Shown: positions 7,603-17,806 of the stretch, piece after piece
Layout of the letters: every line of letters starts with the position of its first letter
How positions within the stretch are numbered: the first letter of the stretch is position 1
Notes under the pieces: generated by a model
Database searches by the model: none
Seen by the model: only the letters and a program-made list of their open reading frames with translations
Told to the model about the DNA's origin: nothing
NCBI GenBank assembly: GCA_036385495.1
Contig: DASVKG010000004.1
Location: 12,085 to 76,084 of the forward strand
Reading direction: 5' to 3'
DNA from: Anaerolineales bacterium
GTDB lineage: Bacteria; Chloroflexota; Anaerolineae; Anaerolineales; Villigracilaceae
Length of the DNA: 64,000 nucleotides
Translations under genes and position numbers: made by a program

Positions 7603-9145
7603 GCGCCGCCTCCACCTCACCAAGATAATCCAAACCCGCCCATCCCTGTGGATTCTCGTAGACCGGTGTTAAACCGCCCGGCGTGCTCTCTTTTTCCAAA
7701 ATCAGGTATTGTGCTCCATAACGGTGTGCCACACCTAAAAGAGTTCCCAAGTCTCCATCCGGGACTGCAATCGCAGGATTTCCGGAGGCAAGATAAAACC
7801 CGGGTGGATTGGCAACCATGACGATCGAATGGTCAGTCATCCCTTCTGAAATCATAAATGTATTTATATGGTTATACGCTATATCTTCCCGTCCCCAAAG
7901 CTGGCTGCCGCCCCCGCCCATGACACGCCCGTAGATAATGACCGCCGACAGAAGGGTAACGACAACTACCAGCCCAAGCTGGAAAATTTTTCCTGACCGG
8001 ACAATATTCCAGCCGCGCATCCGGCTACCCCAGCCAATGAAGCGGTCTAGGCCCAAAGGCGCAAGTACCCACCAAACTGTCTGCACTGAGGCACCGGAGT
8101 GAAAAAAGCCGCCACGCGCCCCCGCAAATGGAAAGACCAAGGTCATGGCGGCAAGAGTTCCCAGCCAAGCAAGACCAGCCAACTGCACGCGCCGATCTTT
8201 TCGCAATTGCCAGAGACCAAGCCCAATCAGCGGGAGCAGGATTACTTCCCCCTGCACCGATAGGATATTGGAAAGGTTGAGACCCAACGCCCAAACTCGG
8301 GCTCTGAATATCGCCAAAAGACCAGACTGCCACCAGGCTGAAAACGTAATGTCACTGGCCGGGTAACCAAATAATTGGTCATATGAAGTAAGCCAAAGCA
8401 ATTTTAAGCCACCGGGAGCCAGTGGAGTGCCAAAGGCAGCGTAGTTACGGATAAACCAGGGAGTCATGACCAACAGGTAACCAGCTACGGTTAGTAACAA
8501 AAAGGTGAAAATATAATTAAAGCGGTGGTGGGAAGGTTTGGGCCAAACAATAAGAACAGCCAGAATGGCAATTAGCAACCAGAGCAAGCCATCAGCGCGA
8601 GTCAAATGCATCAGGCCAGCCAGCAAGCCGAGGAGTAAAGGGTTGAGGGGGGAGGATTTACGATTAAGGACGAGAAAAAATAAGCCTCCAAAAAGTATGT
8701 ACAAGCCGAAGGTGTCAGTAACTGGTAAAAAAGGCAGGTAAAAGGCAGGGAAAACCGCCAGCAAACCTGAGATGAGAGCCAAGTCACGGCGGGAAGAAAA
8801 GGACCACGCCAAGGCAGCAGTCAAAGGCGGGATAAGAGCAGCGACCAGAAGAAAACCGGCTCGCGCGGCGAACCAGGATGAGGGTCCGAAGAGAGCTGCA
8901 CCGGCAGCAGCGAGGAGGGATGCCATCGGCATCCAGTAGGCATGGGACGGATGAGGCAATCCGGATGGATCGTCCAGATAATTCCAAAGATAACTTTCGG
9001 TGAAGCCATGACCGTTGACTAATTGCAGGCCCCCTGCATAGTAATAGTCCGCATCCATATAACCAGGCGAAGGCTGATAGGCTGCGACAGAAGTCGCAGC
9101 AGCCAGACCCAGCAGAGCCAGGAGCAGAGTCAACCGCCATGTCAT
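7580..9145 (-). CDS. Polytopic membrane protein, GT-C/PMT_2-like glycosyltransferase (paralog B)
   Basis: PGYMDADYYYAGGLQL...WNYLDDPSGLPHPSHAYWMPMAS, matching paralog A. Start set to MTWRL (ATG 9145), which overlaps the upstream stop as ATGA. The track start at 9343 would overlap the upstream gene by 200 nt. Confidence 0.6.
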   Translation of the reverse strand: MTWRLTLLLALLGLAAATSVAAYQPSPGYMDADYYYAGGLQLVNGHGFTESYLWNYLDDPSGLPHPSHAYWMPMASLLAAAGAALFGPSSWFAARAGFLLVAALIPPLTAALAWSFSSRRDLALISGLLAVFPAFYLPFLPVTDTFGLYILFGGLFFLVLNRKSSPLNPLLLGLLAGLMHLTRADGLLWLLIAILAVLIVWPKPSHHRFNYIFTFLLLTVAGYLLVMTPWFIRNYAAFGTPLAPGGLKLLWLTSYDQLFGYPASDITFSAWWQSGLLAIFRARVWALGLNLSNILSVQGEVILLPLIGLGLWQLRKDRRVQLAGLAWLGTLAAMTLVFPFAGARGGFFHSGASVQTVWWVLAPLGLDRFIGWGSRMRGWNIVRSGKIFQLGLVVVVTLLSAVIIYGRVMGGGGSQLWGREDIAYNHINTFMISEGMTDHSIVMVANPPGFYLASGNPAIAVPDGDLGTLLGVAHRYGAQYLILEKESTPGGLTPVYENPQGWAGLDYLGEVEAAHVFIVQP

Positions 9146-10383
9146 GGGAGAGTATCGCTCCAGATGCGCGGAGGACGAACAGCCCACCAGCGCATCCAAT
9201 AAAGACCCACCACGAGCAAAACGGGGAATCCAAGCACCAGCACATCGGAAAGGGCTGCAAAGGAACCAGCAAGGAACAAGCTGGCAGTGATAAGCCAAAA
9301 CCCTAATATGATAATTATGAGAGCAAATCCCGCTAAACTCCAACGGCCAGAGCGGGACCAGCGTTCAGCCAAAATGGACAGGAAAAGAATCAGGGGGAAG
9401 AACAGCAACGCGTAGGTTTGGAGAATGACCGGGATACCCAAGAGCGGTGTGACCGCAAGAGTCATACTGGAAGTCCATAGAAAGTGACGAAAATCCTTGT
9501 GACGAACATCACGCCACTCGATGAAAAGAACCACAAACAAGAGGCCGGTCAACGCCCAGCCAAGGCGGGGACCCACCACCGGCCACCAGGACGCAAAAAT
9601 GCCACCAGGTGTAAGGGCTGGTTGGAATTTTATATGGGAAATCAATCCACCAATGAATGGTATAAACCAGTTTGATAAAATGAAGAACGATACAGCCAGA
9701 AGAATAGTGATGGTCATCAGAAAACCTGCAACAATACGACCGCGATGATGATAGACGGCCCACCAAATGATAATAAGTACCAGGAGAACAGAAACATCCA
9801 GCTGGAAAAATGGAACTACCAACAAAGCCCCAGCAAACTCGTCGCGCCCATCACGAATTGCGATCAAGAGAGCGACAATAGCCAGAGCGGAAAATATGAC
9901 CGCATTACCGCTTACCAAAGGGAGGAGCCCATAGACCCATAGTATCGAAAAGGTCAGCAATAACCACAATATGGCACGGGGCGGTTTCCAGCCGGTCAAC
10001 CTCAGGGAATAGATTGCCAAGGCAACCAGCGCAATTTCGAGGCAGGTCATCCAAAGACCCCGGGCGAGGGCATAATCCGAAACCAAGGCAAAGGGAAAAT
10101 AGATTAGTTCGACCGGGAAGGGGACGCTCAGCCGAAGCGGGTCCTGACCTGTGGTGGCAAGGCGACCATAATAGAGTACCTGGGCGCGCTGTGCAGCAGG
10201 TTCGCTGTAGGGACTATTGCCATACTGAAGCAAGGTGCCCGCCGCCAACCAAGGGACGAAAAAATCCTTCTCGCCAAGGTGAAGTCGGGCATAACGCGTG
10301 TTGGCCCAAGACAAACCGCCAATGATAGCGAGGACGAGGAATATGAGTGTGATCGTGGTGATGATATTGAGGGTGCGGGACAT
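9142..10383 (-). CDS. Polytopic membrane protein, DUF2029/GT87-like glycosyltransferase candidate
   Basis: 413 aa with more than 10 TM helices. It is the first gene of the four-gene membrane operon. The family call is from general resemblance only. Confidence 0.45.
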   Translation of the reverse strand: MSRTLNIITTITLIFLVLAIIGGLSWANTRYARLHLGEKDFFVPWLAAGTLLQYGNSPYSEPAAQRAQVLYYGRLATTGQDPLRLSVPFPVELIYFPFALVSDYALARGLWMTCLEIALVALAIYSLRLTGWKPPRAILWLLLTFSILWVYGLLPLVSGNAVIFSALAIVALLIAIRDGRDEFAGALLVVPFFQLDVSVLLVLIIIWWAVYHHRGRIVAGFLMTITILLAVSFFILSNWFIPFIGGLISHIKFQPALTPGGIFASWWPVVGPRLGWALTGLLFVVLFIEWRDVRHKDFRHFLWTSSMTLAVTPLLGIPVILQTYALLFFPLILFLSILAERWSRSGRWSLAGFALIIIILGFWLITASLFLAGSFAALSDVLVLGFPVLLVVGLYWMRWWAVRPPRIWSDTLP

Positions 10384-10392
10384 TTCGAGGGA

Positions 10393-10421
10393 ATTCTACC
10401 TTACAATCAACCCGTGGACAA
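10393..10421 (-). promoter_or_regulatory. Candidate promoter of the GT-C operon (near-leaderless)
   Basis: Minus strand reads TTGTCC (10421-10416), a 17-nt spacer, then TAGAAT (10398-10393). The -10 box ends 9 nt before ATG 10383 and there is no SD. Confidence 0.35.
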
Positions 10422-10646
10422 TCGATGAATTTCAATTTAAAAATTATCCAACAGAGATACATGTTAAGCAATTTTAATTTAGATTATGTGACGAATACAA
10501 CATTTAAAGCAATGGTAACGCCAGGATTATTTAGTCCATCTTTCCCTAACACGGATGGTTTGTTTCCAGCGTTACTCCCATAAAGGAAATTTGAAGAATT
10601 CCGGAGCTTTTGCATGCTAATAAATATATCCAAATAAGCAAGATTA

Positions 10647-10664
10647 ATTTGTCAATTGACAAAT
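10647..10664. promoter_or_regulatory. Perfect 18-bp palindrome ATTTGTCAATTGACAAAT (candidate dimeric regulator site)
   Basis: Exact inverted repeat read directly from the sequence. It lies in the AT-rich, ORF-free divergent region between the GT-C operon and asnA. Confidence 0.3.
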
Positions 10665-10978
10665 CGTTTAAAGATTGGAGACCTTACACACACCACACCA
10701 ATCCAGGACACAAAATTATCATGGACCATTCCCTCTCTTCCGACTCTTATTGCAGAAGGTTGGATTAAAGGTGCAAAAAAAGGAGAAACCGGAGAAATGG
10801 AATTCAGATTTCTGAATTATTCATCAACAGCCCTTGGTTATTCTTGAAGTCCAAGCAAGTGCGAGCCATAAGACCAGTCTTCCAAAAGAATATAATTACG
10901 GAGTATTTTGTTATTTTTAATTACACGTTTCAACCTTCGGATCAGTTTATGCTATAATACCGCCCATCTGAGGCAAGA

Positions 10979-11059
10979 ATGACTATTATTCGCTTCGCCA
11001 CCAATAATAACAATAACGATAATCGGCCTCCGGCCGCTGGGCGAAGCTTGCCAGGATAG
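10979..11059 (+). CDS. Leader peptide MTIIRFATNNNNNDNRPPAAGRSLPG (26 aa)
   Basis: ATG lies 5 nt after GAGG. Codons 9-15 are AAT AAT AAC AAT AAC GAT AAT (11003-11023). The TAG stop at 11057-11059 lies 10 nt after segment 2. Confidence 0.65.
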   Translation: MTIIRFATNNNNNDNRPPAAGRSLPG

Positions 11060-11079
11060 AGAACTCTCGATCCTTCCTT

Positions 11080-11113
11080 ATCGCCCAACGCAATCGCGGA
11101 GGGCGATTTTTAT
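11080..11113 (+). terminator. Attenuator terminator (copy A)
   Basis: TCGCCC..CGC / GCG..GGGCGA stem (6+3 bp with a 2x2 internal loop and AATC loop), followed by TTTTTATT. asnA SD and ATG follow within 30 nt. Confidence 0.7.
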
Positions 11114-11140
11114 TACCCATATTCCAAAAAAGGAGACCCA

Positions 11141-12178
11141 ATGAAAAAACTACTTATTCCATCCGATTACGAACCGCACCTTGATGTGAAACAAACGGAA
11201 CAAGCCATCAAGTTGATCAAGGATTTCTTTGAAGTCAACCTGGCCGCAGAACTACGATTGAGCCGAGTGACCGCACCTTTGTTCGTCCTGCGAGGGACCG
11301 GTATCAACGACGATCTGAACGGAGTCGAAAAACCGGTCTCCTTCCCCATCGTCGATATCAAAGGACAGACAGCCGAGATCGTCCAATCCCTCGCCAAGTG
11401 GAAGCGAATGATGCTGGCTGACTACGGCATCCAGCACGGATACGGTCTCTACACTGATATGAATGCCATCCGCCCGAGTGAAAATCTGGATAACCTTCAT
11501 TCAATTTACGTAGATCAATGGGACTGGGAAAGGGTTATCAGCCCTGGAGAAAGAACCATCTCGTTTTTGGAAGAAATCGTGCGTAAGATTTACGCGGTCA
11601 TCAAACGCACTGAATTCCATCTTTCAGATCATTACATGTTCATCAAGCCTGAATTGCCGGATGAGATCACGTTTATCCACTCGGAGGACCTGCAACGAAA
11701 ATACCCCGATCTGACTCCCAGACAGCGTGAGGAAGAAATCGTCCGCCAACATCGAGCCGTGTTTATCATCGGAATCGGTGCCGCCCTGGCTGATGGAATC
11801 CCTCATGACGGCAGGGCACCTGACTATGACGATTGGATCACAGAAACTAAAAATGGTTTGCGAGGTCTAAACGGCGATATTATCATATGGAACAATGTGC
11901 TGAATTGTTCCTATGAGCTTTCATCCATGGGAATACGCGTAGATGGGGAAGCATTGCTACGGCAATTGGAGGTTACCGGAACCATGGAACGAAAGGAGTT
12001 GCTTTTTCACCGCCGTCTGCTAAACAACGAACTACCACTTTCGATCGGCGGCGGGGTTGGTCAATCGCGGCTGTGCATGTATTTCCTTCGAAAGGCCCAT
12101 ATCGGTGAGGTCCAAGTGGGCATCTGGCCCGCAGAGATGATGGAAGAATGCCGAGCAAACAACATTTTCCTTTTGTAA
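11141..12178 (+). CDS. asnA: Aspartate--ammonia ligase (asparagine synthetase A)
   Basis: 345 aa with AsnA hallmarks: VDQWDWERVI, SSMGIRVD, GGGVGQSRLCMYFL. SD AAGGAGA lies upstream of the ATG. Confidence 0.9.
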   Translation: MKKLLIPSDYEPHLDVKQTEQAIKLIKDFFEVNLAAELRLSRVTAPLFVLRGTGINDDLNGVEKPVSFPIVDIKGQTAEIVQSLAKWKRMMLADYGIQHGYGLYTDMNAIRPSENLDNLHSIYVDQWDWERVISPGERTISFLEEIVRKIYAVIKRTEFHLSDHYMFIKPELPDEITFIHSEDLQRKYPDLTPRQREEEIVRQHRAVFIIGIGAALADGIPHDGRAPDYDDWITETKNGLRGLNGDIIIWNNVLNCSYELSSMGIRVDGEALLRQLEVTGTMERKELLFHRRLLNNELPLSIGGGVGQSRLCMYFLRKAHIGEVQVGIWPAEMMEECRANNIFLL

Positions 12179-12223
12179 ACCTGTAGATAATATGTGCTAT
12201 AATACCGCCAACCTGAGGCAAGA

Positions 12224-12304
12224 ATGATAGCAATCCGCTTCGCCAACAATATTAACGATAAGGATAATCGGCCTCCGGCGGTTGGGCGAAGCTTGCAAGG
12301 ATAA
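12224..12304 (+). CDS. Leader peptide MIAIRFANNINDKDNRPPAVGRSLQG (26 aa)
   Basis: Same length and frame logic as copy A. Codons 8-15 are AAC AAT ATT AAC GAT AAG GAT AAT (12245-12268). TAA stop at 12302-12304. Confidence 0.65.
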   Translation: MIAIRFANNINDKDNRPPAVGRSLQG

Positions 12305-12326
12305 GGACCATTCGGAAACCTACTCG

Positions 12327-12360
12327 TCGCCCAACGCCATTGCGGAGGGCGATTTGTTTT
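12327..12360 (+). terminator. Attenuator terminator (copy B)
   Basis: Same stem as copy A with a different loop (CATT), followed by TTTGTTTT. aspS SD GGAGG follows at 12367-12371. Confidence 0.7.
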
Positions 12361-12376
12361 GTAATTGGAGGCTTTC

Positions 12377-14143
12377 ATGTATAAAACTCATACTTGCGGC
12401 GAACTACGCGCCAGCCACGCCGGGCAGACCGTCACCGTGGCTGGATGGGTGCACAACTTCCGCACGTTTGGCGGAGTAGTCTTTTTGGTATTACGCGATC
12501 GTTTTGGCATCACCCAAATTGTTACCAACCCGGATAAATTCCCAGAAGCGGCCAAAGCAATTGAGGGGTTGAAAAACGAATGGGTTGTGCAGGTTGCCGG
12601 CAGCGTACGGATGCGCCCGTCGGACCAGTTTAACCCAAAGATGCCCACCGGTGAAATCGAGGTGGAGGCGCATGAAGTGACTGTTTTGAATGAGGCTAAA
12701 ACCCTGCCATTCGTAGTCAGCCGGGATGACGAGGAAATCGACGAGAACCTGAGGCTTAAATACCGCTACCTTGACTTAAGGCGTGAACGCATGAAGCGCA
12801 ACCTCATCCTTCGCCACGAGGTGGTGTTGTTCATGCGAAAGTATTTATCGGAACGCGGATTCATCGAGGTGGAGACACCCATGATGTTCAAGACCACTCC
12901 AGAGGGAGCGCGCGACTATCTTGTACCGTCGCGTGTCTACCCCGGGCAGTTCTACGCATTACCTCAAAGCCCCCAGCAACTTAAGCAACTATTGATGGTG
13001 GCAGGGATCGAGCGATATTTCCAAATCGCGCGCTGCTTCCGTGACGAAGACTCACGTGGAGACCGCCAACCTGAATTCACGCAACTCGACCTGGAAATGT
13101 CGTTCGTCCATCGCGATGATGTTCTAAATATGGTGGAAGGTTTGATCACCGCCATGCTTCCAGAAGTGGCTCCACAAAAGAAATTTTTGGCCTCGCCCTG
13201 GCCTCGCCTGACTTACAATGAGTCCGTGGAACGTTTTGGCACCGATAAACCCGACCTGCGCTTTGGAATGGAGCTTTATAACGCCAATGCTATCTTTGGG
13301 AAAAGCGAATTCGTCGTTTTCATTTCAGCACTGGAAACCGGCTGTATCATTAAATGCATTGTGGCTCCAAGCTGTGCAGGGTATACTCGCAAGCAACTCG
13401 ACGACCTGACGACGGCTGCCAAAGAACTGGGGGCAAAGGGACTGATAACTCTAGCGTTGACGACTGAGGGTGCGAAGGGGTCCGGAGCCAAATTTATCAG
13501 CGAGAAAGAAATCTCAGCCTTGACCCGATTAACCGGTGCAACCACCGGAGACCTGATCCTGTTCATCGCAGACAGCCCAAAGATAGTCCACAAAGTGCTA
13601 GGTGTATTGCGCAACAGGTTCCGTGACGCCCTGAAACTTGCCGATCCGGACGTGATGGCCTTTGCCTTCGTGCTGGATTTCCCGATGTTTGAGTGGAACG
13701 AAGAGTTCAAGAAATGGGACGCCTCACACCACCCATTCACCATGCCGCGCCTGGAGCACCTTGACCGGTTCGAAACTGATCCATCCACAATTCTTTCGGA
13801 GGCGTACGATATGGTCTGCAATGGCTACGAAATGGCCTCCGGATCAATCCGAATTCACCGGCGTGACATCCAGTCGAAAGTATTCAACCTGCTCGGAATA
13901 GAAGATGAGGAAGCTCAGTTCAAGTTCGGGCACATGCTGGAAGCTTTCGAGTACGGTGCACCGCCACATGGCGGGATTGCTCCCGGCATTGACCGGCTGG
14001 TAATGCTGCTGGCTGATGAACCCAACATCCGAGAAGTAATCGCCTTTCCAAAGAACCAGGCTGCCCGCGACGTGATGGCAAATGCCCCGTCATACCCGGA
14101 CGAGAGACAATTGAAGGAATTGCATCTAAAAATAACCGAGTAG
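12377..14143 (+). CDS. aspS: Aspartate--tRNA ligase (bacterial type)
   Basis: [11 protein letters not shown]... with an OB-fold N-terminus, class II motifs ([28 protein letters not shown]) and the GAD insertion. Start moved to ATG 12377, 5 nt after GGAGG; the track start at 12365 is a TTG. Confidence 0.92.
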
Positions 14144-14182
14144 GGAAAGAGGATTTCCCTCCTGCCATCCATGGAGACACAT

Positions 14183-15523
14183 ATGCCCATCATTCGCGTT
14201 GAAGAAATAGCAAAATATCCCGGCGAAGAAGTTACTGTGCAGGGCTGGGTCTACAGCCGCACTGACAAAGGGAAGCTGGTTTTCCTGCTCGTCCGGGATG
14301 GCTCAGGTTTTGTCCAGTGTGTAGCTTTCAAAGGTGACCTTCCCGAGGCAATCTTCGACCAGCTAACCCGCCTGCCGCAGGAATCCTCGGTCATTATCAG
14401 CGGACCAGTACGCGAAGACAAGCGCGCTCCCGGCATCCCCGGAGGGTACGAGATCGGCGTTAAGGAAATACAAATCATCCAGATGGCTGCCGAGGATTAT
14501 CCAATGGCGTTGAAAGAGCACGGGGTGGACTTCGCCCTAGACAACCGCCACTTGTGGATCCGCATGCCCAGCCAGTGGGCCATCCTGCGCATTCGCGGGA
14601 CGGTCATTTCGGCTATCCGTGAGTGGTTCGAACAGAACGGGTTTATCAATATGGACACGCCCATCCTGACTCCGGCAGCTGTAGAAGGCACCACTACTCT
14701 TTTCGAGACGGAATATTTCGACGAAGGTAAAGCCTACCTTAGCCAATCGGGCCAGCTTTATAACGAGGCGAATATCATGGCCTTTGGAAAGGTTTACTGC
14801 TTTGGCCCGACCTTTCGCGCCGAAAAATCCAAAACTCGCCGTCACCTGACCGAGTTTTGGATGGTCGAACCAGAGATCGCCTTCTGCGATCTGGATGGTT
14901 TAATGGAGGTGGAGGAGCAGTTCGTGACGCATATTGTCAAACGCGTCCTACGAGATCGGGGGCCTGAGTTGAAATCTCTGGGCCGTGACCTGACGAAGCT
15001 GGAAAAAATAGAGGTTCCCTTCCCGCGCATCTCCTACGACGAGGCTACCAAAGCCATCCAGGAGCTTTATGAAAAGGAAACTGACCCGGAAAAAAAAGAG
15101 ATGCTAAAATTCGAATGGGGCATGGACTTCGGGGCACCCCACGAGGCAGTCCTGACCAGCCGTTACGAGAAACCTGTCTTTGTCTACGGTTACCCTACTC
15201 AGGTGAAGGCTTTCTACATGGAACCTTGGCCAGGGCGTCCCGAGGTTTGCAAGTCAGTGGACTTGCTTGCACCGGAAGGATACGGAGAAATCATAGGTGG
15301 TTCGGAGCGCATGTCCAGTCCCGACTTGCTGCTGGAGCGCATCCACGAACACGGATTGCCGGAAGCAGCCTACAAATGGTACCTGGACCTGCGGCGTTAT
15401 GGCTCGGTCCCTCACTCCGGCTTTGGGATGGGCGTAGAGAGGACGGTAGCCTGGATCTGCGGAATCGAGCATATCCGTGAAACCATTGCCTTCCCGCGCA
15501 TGATCAAGAGAGTCTATCCGTAA
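14183..15523 (+). CDS. asnS: Asparagine--tRNA ligase
   Basis: AsnRS signature [21 protein letters not shown] and GGSERM...SGFGMGVER. Start set to ATG 14183 (GGAGA 6 nt upstream) rather than 14171. Confidence 0.9.
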
Positions 15524-15734
15524 TATTGTCGGGGATCTGCGGTATTTAAACCACTCTCTGAACTAATCCACCCATTATTTCATCCCAAAGGTGTTTCCAT
15601 AAGAACCTTAATCTTTCCCTACACACCCCTCTTACTTTATGGTATAAAACATCTACCCTGCTGTGCTCGCGATGTTGCACCTCCGTTCTGAGCCAACACC
15701 CACAAAAAGGGGTCCAATCTCGCGACAAGGATGC

Positions 15735-16229
15735 GATAGGCTTCGGCCAAGGCTGACTTGCCGGGTAGAACCCCGACCTGCGAAAGCAGGTTCAGAACCT
15801 TGCAGCACACGGCATTAGCGGGGTTATCTTATACAACCGAATACGGAGAACCAGCGACTGGCTCCCGGGAGAACCGGGAGTACGAGGTGGAGGTTCCTCT
15901 GCGCAAGCGGAGGTTAAGACCCTTACTCCAGCCCCTTTCCTATATAGAGGATAAGGGTTGAGGTTGAAGGTCGAAAATCGGATAGATCAGCGGATGCCTC
16001 CGGAGCCTGACCACGGGTTCCCTTCTCCCTTCCAGAAAAAGCGCACAGCAACGAACAGGTTTAAAAAAACTGTGTTTGTTGTCCAGTCCCAAAACTGACC
16101 GGTGACGGTCAGGACAAAGGATAGCCGCAGTGGTCCAGGCAGAAAACCAGCCTGCGTAAACATGGAAGGGCTGCCAGCCGGAAATTTTGTGGTACCAGAG
16201 GCATGCCCCTCAGGCATGCCTTTTTATTT
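15735..16229 (+). ncRNA. Large structured RNA with glmS-ribozyme-like core motifs (candidate; the 5' boundary is uncertain)
   Basis: No credible ORF. Hairpins capped by tetraloops that read as such only on the + strand: UUCG 15739-15748, GAAA 15776-15791, GAGAA 15862-15880, GCAA 15896-15913, GUGA 16095-16112. More hairpins at 15933-15957 and 16049-16081. Motifs AGCGAC, ACGAGG-U-GGAGGUU, GUCGAAAAUCGG, GCGGAUGCCUCCGG and GGACAAAGG occur in the order I remember for the glmS ribozyme. The element ends at an intrinsic terminator. Confidence 0.5.
16199..16229 (+). terminator. Intrinsic terminator closing the structured RNA
   Basis: AGGCATGCC / GGCATGCCT 9-bp stem with a CCTCA loop, followed by TTTTATTT. 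Confidence 0.75.
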
Positions 16230-16468
16230 ATGGAGTACCCAATGAGTAATGAAAAGAATTGGTTCAAATGGCATAAAGGATTGGCACGCTCCTCATGCGA
16301 AAACGGCGTCCAGCCATGGCCGGCGCGCCCGGTTTTTAGCTTGATCCGACCTGTACCAAGACCTGTCCCAAAGTCCGGTGCTTTCCGGCATATTCCATTT
16401 GTCAATAACCAGGAATCAACCATTCAGAAATAATTAATCCAAACCCCATAATCATTTAGAGAGGAAAT

Positions 16469-17806
16469 ATGGAACCCAAAGAATTAATTGCTCGTGTTAA
16501 ATCGGATAATGTCAAATTTATTTCCTACCAGTTCACCGACGTAACTGGCGCAGTTAAAAGTGTGGACGCCCCCATTAAGCAATTGGAGTCCACATTGGAA
16601 GATGGCGTCTGGTTTGACGGTTCATCGGTGGAAGGCTTCGCCCGGATACAAGAAAGCGACATGCGCCTGGTAATTGATCCGGATACCTATGCTGTCCTCC
16701 CCTGGAGTCCAGTCGAGGCGCGCCGGGCGCGCGTCTTCTGCGATATTTTTACCCCCGATGGACAACCCTTTGATGGTGACCCGCGAGGGGCACTCAAACG
16801 CATTCTTTCCAAAATAACGGAAAGGGGCTGGACCTATAACGTGGGGCCCGAACCTGAATTTTTCCTTTTCCGCCGCAACGGTGGAGAGGCCATCCACCCC
16901 GTGCCGCACGATGTAGGTAGTTACTTCGACTTCTCCGCTGACGATGAGGCTGTGCGGGTCCGCACTGAATTAATGGATGCGCTTAACAGTATGGGATTGG
17001 ATGTGGAAGTGGGGCATCACGAAGTGGCCATCGGTCAACATGAAATTGACTTCCGGTTCGCTGATGCTTTACGGACAGCCGACAACGTGTTGACCCTAAA
17101 ATACACTGTCAAAGCAATCGCCGCCAAACACGACCTGATCGCATCGTTCATGCCCAAACCCGTTTTCGGGATCAATGGTTCCGGCATGCACTGTCACCAA
17201 TCCATTTTTGACAAAAAGGGTAATAACCTGTTCTATGATGCCAAAGATGAATATCACCTTTCCCCCATGGCTTACGGGTTCATAGCCGGTCAATTAAAAC
17301 ATGCCCGCGCCCTGGCAGCAATCGTCGCACCAACTGTAAATTCGTACAAACGTCTGGTCCCGGGGTACGAAGCTCCGGTTTACATCGGCTGGGCGCAGAT
17401 AAACCGCTCTGCGCTGATCCGGATCCCCCGTTTCACCGAAGGCCGCATCAAAGCGATGCGAGCCGAACTGCGCTTCCCCGACCCGTCTGCCAATCCATAC
17501 CTGGCTTTCGCCGCTATCCTGGCTGCAGCGATGGATGGGGTTGACAATAAACTAACACCCCCCGCCCCGCTTAACAATATTAACGTATATCACCTAGATG
17601 AGGCAGAACGCGCCAAACTAGGTATTGCCTCCCTGCCCGGTTCCCTAGCCGAAGCCCTGGATGAATTAGAAAAAGACAAAGTAGTTCGCTCGGCATTGGG
17701 CGAGAACATTTACGATGCTTTCACTCGTGCCAAGCGGGATGAGTGGGATGCCTTCCGAATTAATGTGACTGACTGGGAAGTGAAACAATATCTTGAAACA
17801 GCATAG
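16469..17806 (+). CDS. glnA: Glutamine synthetase, type I
   Basis: 445 aa. Beta-grasp N-domain (FTDVTGAVKSV, DGSSVEGF) and catalytic-domain motifs (FMPKPVFGINGSGMHCHQS, NSYKRLVPGYEAP, NRSALIRIP). SD GAGAGGAAA upstream. Confidence 0.92.
   Translation: MEPKELIARVKSDNVKFISYQFTDVTGAVKSVDAPIKQLESTLEDGVWFDGSSVEGFARIQESDMRLVIDPDTYAVLPWSPVEARRARVFCDIFTPDGQPFDGDPRGALKRILSKITERGWTYNVGPEPEFFLFRRNGGEAIHPVPHDVGSYFDFSADDEAVRVRTELMDALNSMGLDVEVGHHEVAIGQHEIDFRFADALRTADNVLTLKYTVKAIAAKHDLIASFMPKPVFGINGSGMHCHQSIFDKKGNNLFYDAKDEYHLSPMAYGFIAGQLKHARALAAIVAPTVNSYKRLVPGYEAPVYIGWAQINRSALIRIPRFTEGRIKAMRAELRFPDPSANPYLAFAAILAAAMDGVDNKLTPPAPLNNINVYHLDEAERAKLGIASLPGSLAEALDELEKDKVVRSALGENIYDAFTRAKRDEWDAFRINVTDWEVKQYLETA

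Follow-up and report, generated by a model that had tools for sequence, protein, structure and literature searches.

This study examined a 64,000-nucleotide stretch of DNA from an Anaerolineales bacterium of the phylum Chloroflexota (contig DASVKG010000004.1, positions 12,085 to 76,084; hereafter the window) and two short leaders within it, one upstream of asnA, which encodes aspartate-ammonia ligase, and one upstream of aspS and asnS, which encode the aspartate- and asparagine-tRNA ligases. Both leaders are, with high probability, ribosome-mediated (leader-peptide) transcription attenuators. Very probably, they switch on asnA and the enzymes charging tRNA-Asp and tRNA-Asn when asparagine (Asn) or aspartate (Asp) is scarce. 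The evidence consists of the sequence features of the leaders, their conservation, selection at the codon level, a link between codon content and downstream gene, and switching in silico. An earlier reading of the window, referred to here as the original prediction, had proposed a leader-peptide attenuator for asnA; what it predicted at the sequence level was borne out in the window and in more than 120 relatives.

Anatomy of the two leaders

Leader A, upstream of asnA, starts with an extended -10 element (TGCTATAAT, 10950-10958), like all features of both leaders on the forward (+) strand, and transcription is predicted to start near A10966. A GAGG Shine-Dalgarno (SD) sequence (10970-10973) precedes an open reading frame (ORF) of 26 codons with an ATG start (10979-11059), which translates as MTIIRFATNNNNNDNRPPAAGRSLPG followed by the stop codon. 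Within it lies the regulatory run, AAT AAT AAC AAT AAC GAT AAT (N N N N N D N; 11003-11023), and translation confirmed the six Asn and one Asp in seven codons that had been reported. Segment 1 (GCTTCGCC, or GCUUCGCC as RNA; 10992-10999) is the partner of segment 2 (CCGCUGGGCGAAGC, 11034-11047, with the core GCTGGGCGAAGC at 11036-11047) in an anti-antiterminator or "protector" helix. Segment 2 engages segment 1 through its 3' part and segment 3 (TCGCCCAAC, 11081-11089) through its 5' part, while segment 4 (GGGCGA, 11101-11106) is followed by TTTTT. Every coordinate originally given for the -10 box, the SD, the ORF, the run, the four segments and the T-run was found to be correct. The intrinsic terminator formed by segments 3 and 4 (11080-11114) is also present as predicted, but its stem is longer than had been stated: it extends over 11080-11107 (AUCGCCC..CGC-loop-GCG..GGGCGAU), with 7 + 3 bp around a 2x2 internal loop, before the U-tract UUUUUAUU.

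Two further hairpins are seen in the minimum-energy fold. The apical hairpin (CGGCCUCCGGCCG, 11024-11036) abuts segment 2, and its 3' arm shares bases with the 5' end of the antiterminator strand. The other hairpin (11053-11074) lies between segments 2 and 3 and encloses the leader stop codon (UAG, 11057-11059), which begins 10 nt past segment 2; counterparts of differing sequence are visible in the alignment of related leaders described below. When the alternative structures of leader A were folded, as had been suggested, the minimum-energy structure of 10965-11120 (-53.9 kcal/mol, z = -5.2 relative to dinucleotide shuffles) contained the 1:2 helix, the apical hairpin, the stop-codon hairpin and the 3:4 terminator. 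The energies of the three competing duplexes are nearly equal in this copy (-16.6 kcal/mol for 1:2, -15.6 for 2:3 and -14.9 for 3:4). Asn accounts for 3.6% of the codons across the window genes, and a stretch of seven codons with at least six Asn/Asp codons occurs in leader ORF A only, all six frames of the 64-kb window considered. The uniqueness of this run, the z-score of the fold and the existence of a second copy together place leader A beyond chance expectation. The asnA gene itself follows at 11141-12178 (+; Pfam AsnA, E = 8.7e-104; NCBIfam asnA equivalog, 388 bits, cutoff 293), and its protein shows 100% identity to AsnA of an Anaerolineales metagenome-assembled genome. A possible pairing of the SD region (GGCAAG) with CUUGCC just past segment 2, seen in the fold of copy A, was dropped since by eye it is inconsistently kept across the leaders that carry an SD.

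Leader B (12195-12361) is 83% identical to leader A and shares its segments 1-4. It has the same extended -10 element (TGCTATAAT, 12195-12203), a GAGG SD, and a leader ORF with an ATG start (12224-12304) that encodes MIAIRFANNINDKDNRPPAVGRSLQG followed by a stop codon, with segment 1 at 12237-12244 and a run of mixed Asn and Asp codons at 12245-12268. Segment 2 of this copy (GGUUGGGCGAAGC, 12280-12292) forms nine continuous base pairs with segment 3 (UCGCCCAAC, 12327-12335), a better antiterminator than that of copy A. The intrinsic terminator (12326-12361) has its stem at 12327-12352, followed by UUUGUUUUG. Downstream lies aspS (12377-14143, +; bacterial-type aspartate-tRNA ligase, NCBIfam aspS equivalog, 821 bits), whose start is likely the ATG at 12377, which is preceded by GGAGG, rather than the upstream TTG at 12365 chosen by the ORF lister. 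The asnS gene (14171-15523, +; NCBIfam asnS equivalog, 539 bits, cutoff 414) begins 28 nt past aspS and is presumably co-transcribed with it under leader B; no match to the covariance model of the leader was found in the gap between the two genes. Across the whole window, this model yielded exactly two matches, leader A (116.2 bits) and leader B (115.6 bits, spanning 12223-12361).

Directly 3' of asnS, a 6S (SsrS) RNA gene was observed at 15652-15828 (+; Rfam RF00013, 60.5 bits, above the gathering score). Two terminator-like hairpins (16197-16223 and 16318-16334) lie between this gene and glnA (16469-17806).

A family of related leaders and its codon signature

Relatives were collected from public metagenome contigs with an RNA-only pattern that describes segment 2 and the terminator (TGGGCGMAGC N{20,50} CGCCCRRCGC N{5,14} GGGCGWT) and holds neither the codon run nor segment 1. 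It was found at no fewer than 120 metagenome loci (at least 120). With the pattern matches in other fetched loci, the family set comprises 131 matches and 122 unique sequences, its metagenome part being restricted to those among the matches listed. Homologous leaders without the Asn/Asp run or the small ORF had been named as the outcome that would speak against the original prediction; instead, about 118 of the 122 unique sequences contain an in-frame ATG ORF that reads through an Asn/Asp run and then through segment 2. Among the matches listed, the downstream gene is aspS in 103 cases and asnA in 14, while ten loci are too short to tell and four are unassigned; two of these four lack an ORF and resemble GC-rich chance matches. 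The emphasis of the proposal of an Asn attenuator for asnA has to be shifted, given the aspS majority and the Asp codons that would be sensed there as well.

The association with aspS was also recovered without the RNA pattern. Six aspS homologues with 77-86% identity were picked from a search with the AspRS protein, and all six loci carry the leader (108-127 bits), the match ending 33-126 nt upstream of aspS. The segments that form helices 1:2, 2:3 and 3:4 are nearly identical among these six loci. All matches of the AspRS search at 76% identity or more came from uncultured relatives, with no cultured host among them. For asnA, the leader is present at four of five distinct loci of relatives (five of six fetched), namely L001, L081, L082/L083 (one sequence in two assemblies) and L084, with AsnA identities of 73-88%; their Asn runs comprise 5-8 codons and the remainder of the peptides is divergent. 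No leader was found at the L007 asnA locus (68% AsnA identity). A scan of genome contigs with the AsnA protein returned mostly Bacteroidota asnA loci among the matches listed, Anaerolineales being represented by L001 and L007 only, and 78 asnA loci of Bacteroidota and other phyla (about 0.8 Mb, among the matches listed) gave a best covariance-model score of 26 bits. These data support a leader family that resides mainly on aspS operons, and secondarily on asnA, in Anaerolineae-type Chloroflexota.

Unrelated elements of a similar kind were noticed in passing. In a Flavobacteriales metagenome-assembled genome (L074:4846-4965), asnA is preceded by an unrelated short ORF (MMNIFFNNNFNYYRLPGGG) in which 5 of 19 codons are Asn, and a strong hairpin with a T-run (AAGCCTTTCTCCC...GAGAAAGGCTTTTTTATTTT) comes next; the end of the ORF, GGGAGGAGG, could pair with the 5' arm of the terminator. 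Possibly, this is an Asn leader attenuator that evolved independently in Bacteroidota. A weaker candidate for an Asn leader (...IKNNKNNNWVVTATQ) was seen in L032 (Aminicenantes).

With regard to the start signals of the leader ORF, 112 of 118 family members have the motif TGnTAYAAT no more than 35 nt 5' of the ATG. In 77 members, this -10 box ends 7-11 nt (mostly 9) ahead of the ATG and there is no SD; a spacing of about 20 nt together with an SD-like motif is seen in about 32 members, among them the two copies of the window. Apparently, the majority of the leader ORFs are leaderless or nearly so, and the window copies belong to an SD-bearing minority class.

Family-wide, the run contains 712 Asn, 316 Asp, 7 Lys and 7 Glu codons. 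Its third positions are T in 709, C in 431, A in 19 and G in 29 cases, that is, 1140 T/C against 48 A/G out of 1188 (96% T/C). This exchange of T and C at third positions, with so few Lys and Glu codons, indicates that synonymous changes are free in the run and that non-synonymous ones are avoided. The run ranges from 5 to about 20 codons, and the distance from segment 1 to segment 2 is 41, 44, 47 or 50 nt, more rarely 35, 38 or 53; such 3-nt steps mean that the run gains and loses whole codons. An extreme case is the aspS leader at L106:1069-1252, with about 20 consecutive AAT (Asn) codons, which indicates that the run is able to expand like a trinucleotide microsatellite.

The position at which translation ends is also conserved: of about 120 sequences, 107-109 have a stop codon that starts 9 nt past segment 2. 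Eight members have one added nucleotide in the apical loop, so that the unchanged segment 2 is read as RWAK and not as VGRS. In all eight, translation stops 5 nt past segment 2, seven of them through a change of GCTGGTTGA to GCTAGTTGA, which creates a new TAG, and the eighth (L200) through TGA. These frameshifted members show that segment 2 is preserved as RNA and that the place where the ORF ends is maintained separately, as a position. Conservation of the peptide is confined to the run: the N-termini differ freely from member to member, and the C-terminus is VGRS or RWAK depending on the frame.

The SD-class leaders, however, carry Arg-Pro-Pro directly past the run, at 11024-11032 and 12269-12277 in the window and in L087, L095, L099, L112, L123, L194 and others. 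The motif is held via synonymous changes (CCT, CCA, CCC or CCG for the first Pro and CCG or CCA for the second), some of which weaken the apical hairpin. This pattern is a hint that the peptide itself is selected, possibly for a polyproline pause, in the SD subclass only.

The composition of the run follows the downstream gene. Leaders of aspS always contain Asp codons, with a mean of 6.1 Asn and 2.8 Asp (95 sequences), whereas asnA leaders have a mean of 6.6 Asn and 1.0 Asp (11 sequences), and those beyond the lineage of the window have pure Asn runs of 7, 8, 5, 9, 9 and 7 codons. In the window's lineage, the leader of asnA appears to be a recent copy of that of aspS, and this explains its single Asp codon. 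The Asp codons are not imposed by the structure, as asnA leaders form the apical hairpin with other codons (AAC GCC G.., GTC CTC). The codon contents support the view that the leader senses both Asn and Asp on aspS operons and Asn alone on most asnA genes outside the window's lineage.

Among the 32 loci with enough sequence downstream of aspS, the adjacent gene is a true asnS in 14 and another class IIb synthetase in 5, and 13 have no adjacent synthetase homologue. At two of the six protein-picked loci (L208:3001-7767 and L210:3001-7764), aspS is followed by gatC and gatA, with gatB also present in L210, and these groups stand behind the same Asn+Asp type of leader. This suggests that the leader can govern the indirect (tRNA-dependent amidotransferase) route to Asn-tRNA(Asn) as well. 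Taken together, the aspS-asnS and aspS-gatC-gatA operons identify the charging of tRNA-Asp and tRNA-Asn as the regulated module.

Base pairing was evaluated in an alignment of 122 sequences (A2) and in a second alignment fitted to the covariance model, in which 93.3% of the cells are paired overall; controls in which the arms were slid gave 21-43% across the helices. The 1:2 helix (8 bp), whose segment 1 lies outside the search pattern, is paired in 91% (A2) to 93% of cells, against 36-43% in its slid controls. The antiterminator 2:3 (10 bp), which overlaps the 5' arm of the terminator, is paired in 98.9% of cells. For the terminator 3:4, the value is 83% in A2, the shortfall being due to the 2x2 internal loop, and 99.5% in the covariance-model alignment with the internal-loop pairs left out. 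The terminator columns outside the search pattern are paired in 98-100% of the sequences, and the terminator is conserved in all family members. With the near-equal duplex energies of copy A, these values agree with the mutually exclusive 1:2, 2:3 and 3:4 pairing originally proposed.

The apical hairpin, which also lies outside the pattern, covaries: one of its pairs is AU in 67, GC in 33, CG in 6 and UA in 2 sequences, and it occurs with 45 distinct arm pairs and a mean stem of 6.0 bp, compared with 4.1 bp in shuffles. Because the 3' arm of this hairpin reaches into the antiterminator strand, the whole of CGUUGGGCGA is sequestered jointly by segment 1 and the hairpin, with the regulatory codons bulging out in between. 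A second register of this hairpin in the MAFFT alignment scored poorly and was replaced by a hairpin search in each sequence.

The proposed switch and competing explanations

From these features we infer the following course of events, including the transcription start sites, ribosome stalling, premature termination and the response to Asn/Asp supply. Transcription would start about 7 nt past the extended -10 element, and a ribosome would translate the 26-codon ORF while RNA polymerase proceeds. When charged tRNA-Asn (and, for leader B, charged tRNA-Asp) is ample, the ribosome would reach the stop codon and cover or unwind segment 2, so that the 3:4 terminator and its U-tract end the transcript before asnA or aspS. 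Without translation, segment 1 and the apical hairpin would sequester segment 2, again leading to termination. When Asn-tRNA or Asp-tRNA is scarce, the ribosome would stall in the run, the 5' bulge of the 1:2 structure, and hold segment 1 and the apical hairpin open. The freed segment 2 strand, CGYUGGGCGA, could then pair with segment 3 over 10 bp, preventing the terminator, so that polymerase would read on into asnA in the case of leader A and into aspS-asnS in that of leader B.

To approximate folding during transcription, transcripts of 118 sequences were cut before segment 4 and a ribosome footprint was imposed. The antiterminator formed in 116 of the 118 with the ribosomal A site on the first regulatory codon and in 113 with the ribosome on the middle one, but in only one with the ribosome on the stop codon. 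This is the behaviour expected from the geometry originally described, in which stalling frees segment 2 and arrival at the stop codon blocks it. In full-length RNA, the terminator was obtained in 112 of 118 sequences without a ribosome and in 111 of 118 with the ribosome on the stop codon.

Several observations weigh against attenuation by a translating ribosome. Cut transcripts without a ribosome gave the 2:3 pairing in 67 sequences and the 1:2 pairing in 50. At equilibrium in full-length RNA, only 41 and 39 of 118 sequences (about 35%) had the antiterminator as their minimum-energy structure with the ribosome on the first and the middle codon of the run, respectively, and none of the 118 did with the ribosome on the last codon. 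Since a ribosome on the run does not keep the terminator from prevailing at equilibrium, the switch has to be a kinetic one. In the E. coli trp attenuator, the terminator likewise wins at equilibrium and the switch is kinetic. Furthermore, segments 2, 3 and 4 are fixed by the search pattern, so that their helices show conservation and not covariation, and only a handful of compensatory changes are seen in 1:2 and 3:4, namely in L137, where the 1:2 helix has a double change from U-A to G-C, and in the pair at alignment columns 138-166, which goes from UA to AU in four cases. Finally, a few members have degenerate leader ORFs (the asnA copies of L099 and L148, and L143), and the leader frame of L208 is broken in a long-read assembly with many split genes.

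Some of these cases were looked at individually. The asnA-linked copies at L099:6840-6977 (-) and L148:1982-2119 (-) retain the RNA segments and the terminator, while most of the Asn run is gone (MTIICFTNLPKYLNYHPLIFGRSLQG and MSTISFINNYNNCGMQPLGEA, respectively); they may be decaying or re-purposed leaders. In the long-read contigs L081, L206 and L208, aspS, asnS, glnA and gatA are fragmented by frameshifts. These split genes most likely reflect sequencing error, which probably also explains the broken leader frame of L208.

Three other explanations were considered. A structured cis-regulatory RNA, acting as a riboswitch, sensing tRNA in the manner of a T-box or binding a protein such as AspRS, could drive the same terminator, the ORF and its AAY/GAY run being incidental, for instance as an A-rich single-stranded linker. 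Aminoacyl-tRNA synthetase (aaRS) genes are often under T-boxes or autoregulatory RNA mimics, and the very strong sequence conservation of the RNA segments, with segment 2 unchanged where the overlying reading frame differs, would suit such a sensor. Nevertheless, at E <= 10 there is still no match to any Rfam family, the T-box among them, and the run does not behave as a linker: an incidental linker would not shun purines at third positions (48 of 1188) while exchanging T and C freely, vary in length by whole codons only, regain a stop codon once the frame has shifted, retain an ATG that has an SD or lies close to the promoter, or drop Asp codons specifically ahead of asnA. We consider this explanation highly improbable. 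The idea that the ORF encodes a functional small peptide, for instance the precursor of a RiPP (a peptide made by the ribosome and modified after translation) or a small regulatory protein, with the hairpin merely as its terminator, accords with a conserved ORF that has its own promoter, and Asn/Asp-rich peptides do exist. Its probability is close to negligible, however, given a peptide that is unconserved outside a run of 5 to about 20 codons, an element always placed right ahead of, and in the same orientation as, aspS or asnA, and the lack of adjacent modification enzymes.

The leaders could also depend on translation without being specific for an amino acid, as a general translation-rate sensor or through a stalling peptide (the EF-P-dependent RPP motif) that sets basal read-through, with the Asn/Asp codons playing a minor part. 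The Arg-Pro-Pro conserved past the run in the SD class, with synonymous changes that weaken the apical hairpin, is compatible with this idea, and in the Streptomyces ilvB leader, mutations of the candidate regulatory codons had no effect (PMC1262725). A leader ORF followed by a terminator is thus no guarantee of classical attenuation. Yet RPP is missing from most of the family, the leaderless class having DDPCIV, DDLRIV and similar sequences instead, whereas the Asn/Asp run is universal and its composition follows the downstream gene. Moreover, a ribosome stalled at the two prolines would cover segment 2 and thereby favour termination, not read-through. Overall, a leader of this kind seems very unlikely, and ribosome-mediated attenuation specific for Asn and Asp is the preferred explanation.

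A more far-reaching interpretation is offered tentatively, as we are inclined to doubt it in its entirety. The main form of the family could be a leaderless dual sensor of Asn and Asp over the whole Asp/Asn-tRNA charging module (aspS with asnS or gatCAB), and the first amino-acid-specific ribosome-mediated attenuator system described for Chloroflexota. In aspS-gatCAB genomes, the Asn codons would report on the tRNA-dependent Asn route (a non-discriminating AspRS, then GatCAB), and an Asn-only offshoot would have been recruited to asnA.

Significance and comparison with known systems

Trp, His, Phe, Leu, Thr, Ile/Val and Cys are, to our knowledge, the amino acids for which leader-peptide attenuation is on record, chiefly from Proteobacteria and Actinobacteria. 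If our interpretation is true, Asn and Asp would be added to this list, as would the phylum Chloroflexota (Anaerolineae), in which gene regulation is scarcely explored and few members are cultured. The more than 120 instances and the covariance model provide a sequence-defined regulon marker and correct the annotation of these intergenic regions. Attenuation would imply that transcription and translation are coupled in these bacteria, and a leaderless dual sensor, if real, would imply tight coupling from the first nucleotide of the transcript in this phylum. Such coupling is not known to occur in every phylum, Bacillus being reported to differ. The Asn-only leaders of asnA and the Asn+Asp leaders of aspS-asnS and aspS-gatCAB constitute a natural experiment in which the specificity of the sensor can be related to codon content, and the apparent existence of SD-led and leaderless versions of one attenuator offers a handle on leaderless initiation in regulation.

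No Rfam 15 family matches the window leaders at the gathering threshold, nor the region 10900-12420 at E <= 10, which indicates that they are neither T-boxes (RF00230) nor homologues of the curated His, Trp, Thr, Leu and Phe leaders. Full-text searches of papers accessible without subscription returned no relevant description of an Asn/Asp leader-peptide attenuator, an asnA/aspS leader or leader peptides in Chloroflexi. The T-boxes of Firmicutes, including Asn- and Asp-specific ones, control aaRS and amino-acid genes and bind uncharged tRNA directly, without a need for translation. They have comparable genes, the sensing of tRNA charging and a terminator/antiterminator output in common with the Asn/Asp leaders, which differ by their translated ORF and by the absence of a match to the T-box model.

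In E. coli, asnA is controlled by a protein of the AsnC/Lrp type encoded by the divergent asnC. No asnC-like divergent regulator was found beside asnA at the window locus, where the ORF at 9142-10383 (-) has no Pfam or NCBIfam family; at homologous loci, the divergent upstream ORF has a weak GT87 match. Between this 413-aa divergent ORF and promoter A, about 570 nt (10384-10949) contain no convincing gene, and the relative L081 has a 527-aa gene at the matching position.

Closest among the items returned by the literature searches were several predicted or reported leaders. A generic "tRNA synthetase leader" has been predicted for Shewanella aspS (PMC2659441), and leader-peptide candidates have been listed in Actinobacteria (PMC1262725). 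For the hisS/hisZ paralogues of Bacilli, a His leader peptide attenuator was predicted by comparative genomics (Naville and Gautheret 2010, PMC2965389). Like the leaders studied here, it precedes an aaRS gene in a taxon outside Proteobacteria and takes the place that a T-box has in other taxa (PMC2965389), but the amino acid, the taxon and the sequence are different. In mycobacteria, leaderless poly-Cys short ORFs act as Cys-responsive attenuators (bioRxiv 10.1101/834739). They resemble the Asn/Asp leaders in having a short ORF at or near the 5' end of the transcript with consecutive codons for the sensed amino acid, whereas the window copies have a 13-nt 5' untranslated region with an SD. The mycobacterial mechanism is reportedly independent of an intrinsic terminator, in contrast to the canonical terminator and antiterminator of the Asn/Asp family.

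The logic of the switch is shared with the his, trp, thr and ilv leaders of Proteobacteria. The his leader has seven consecutive His codons, and a similarly long consecutive run is present here; more than one amino acid can be sensed by the thr leader (Thr and Ile) and by the ilv leaders, as here. What sets the Asn/Asp leaders apart from these, besides their occurrence in Chloroflexota, is the location of the regulatory codons in a 5' bulge, between segments 1 and 2, that is closed by an additional apical hairpin. A leader-peptide transcription attenuator is likewise known from E. coli pheST, an aaRS operon preceded by an attenuator (the pheM leader peptide) in which cognate codons in a short ORF are followed by 1:2, 2:3 and 3:4 hairpins and an intrinsic terminator. 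The two differ in the amino acid (Phe as opposed to Asn/Asp) and in phylum, there is no similarity in sequence or in Rfam, and, unlike pheST, a single family serves both a synthetase operon and a biosynthetic gene. In functional terms, the Asn/Asp leaders possess every feature of the leader-peptide attenuator class that can be judged from sequence, and they differ from the described attenuators in the amino acid, the target genes, the phylum, the placement of the codons in a bulge and the apparently leaderless majority.

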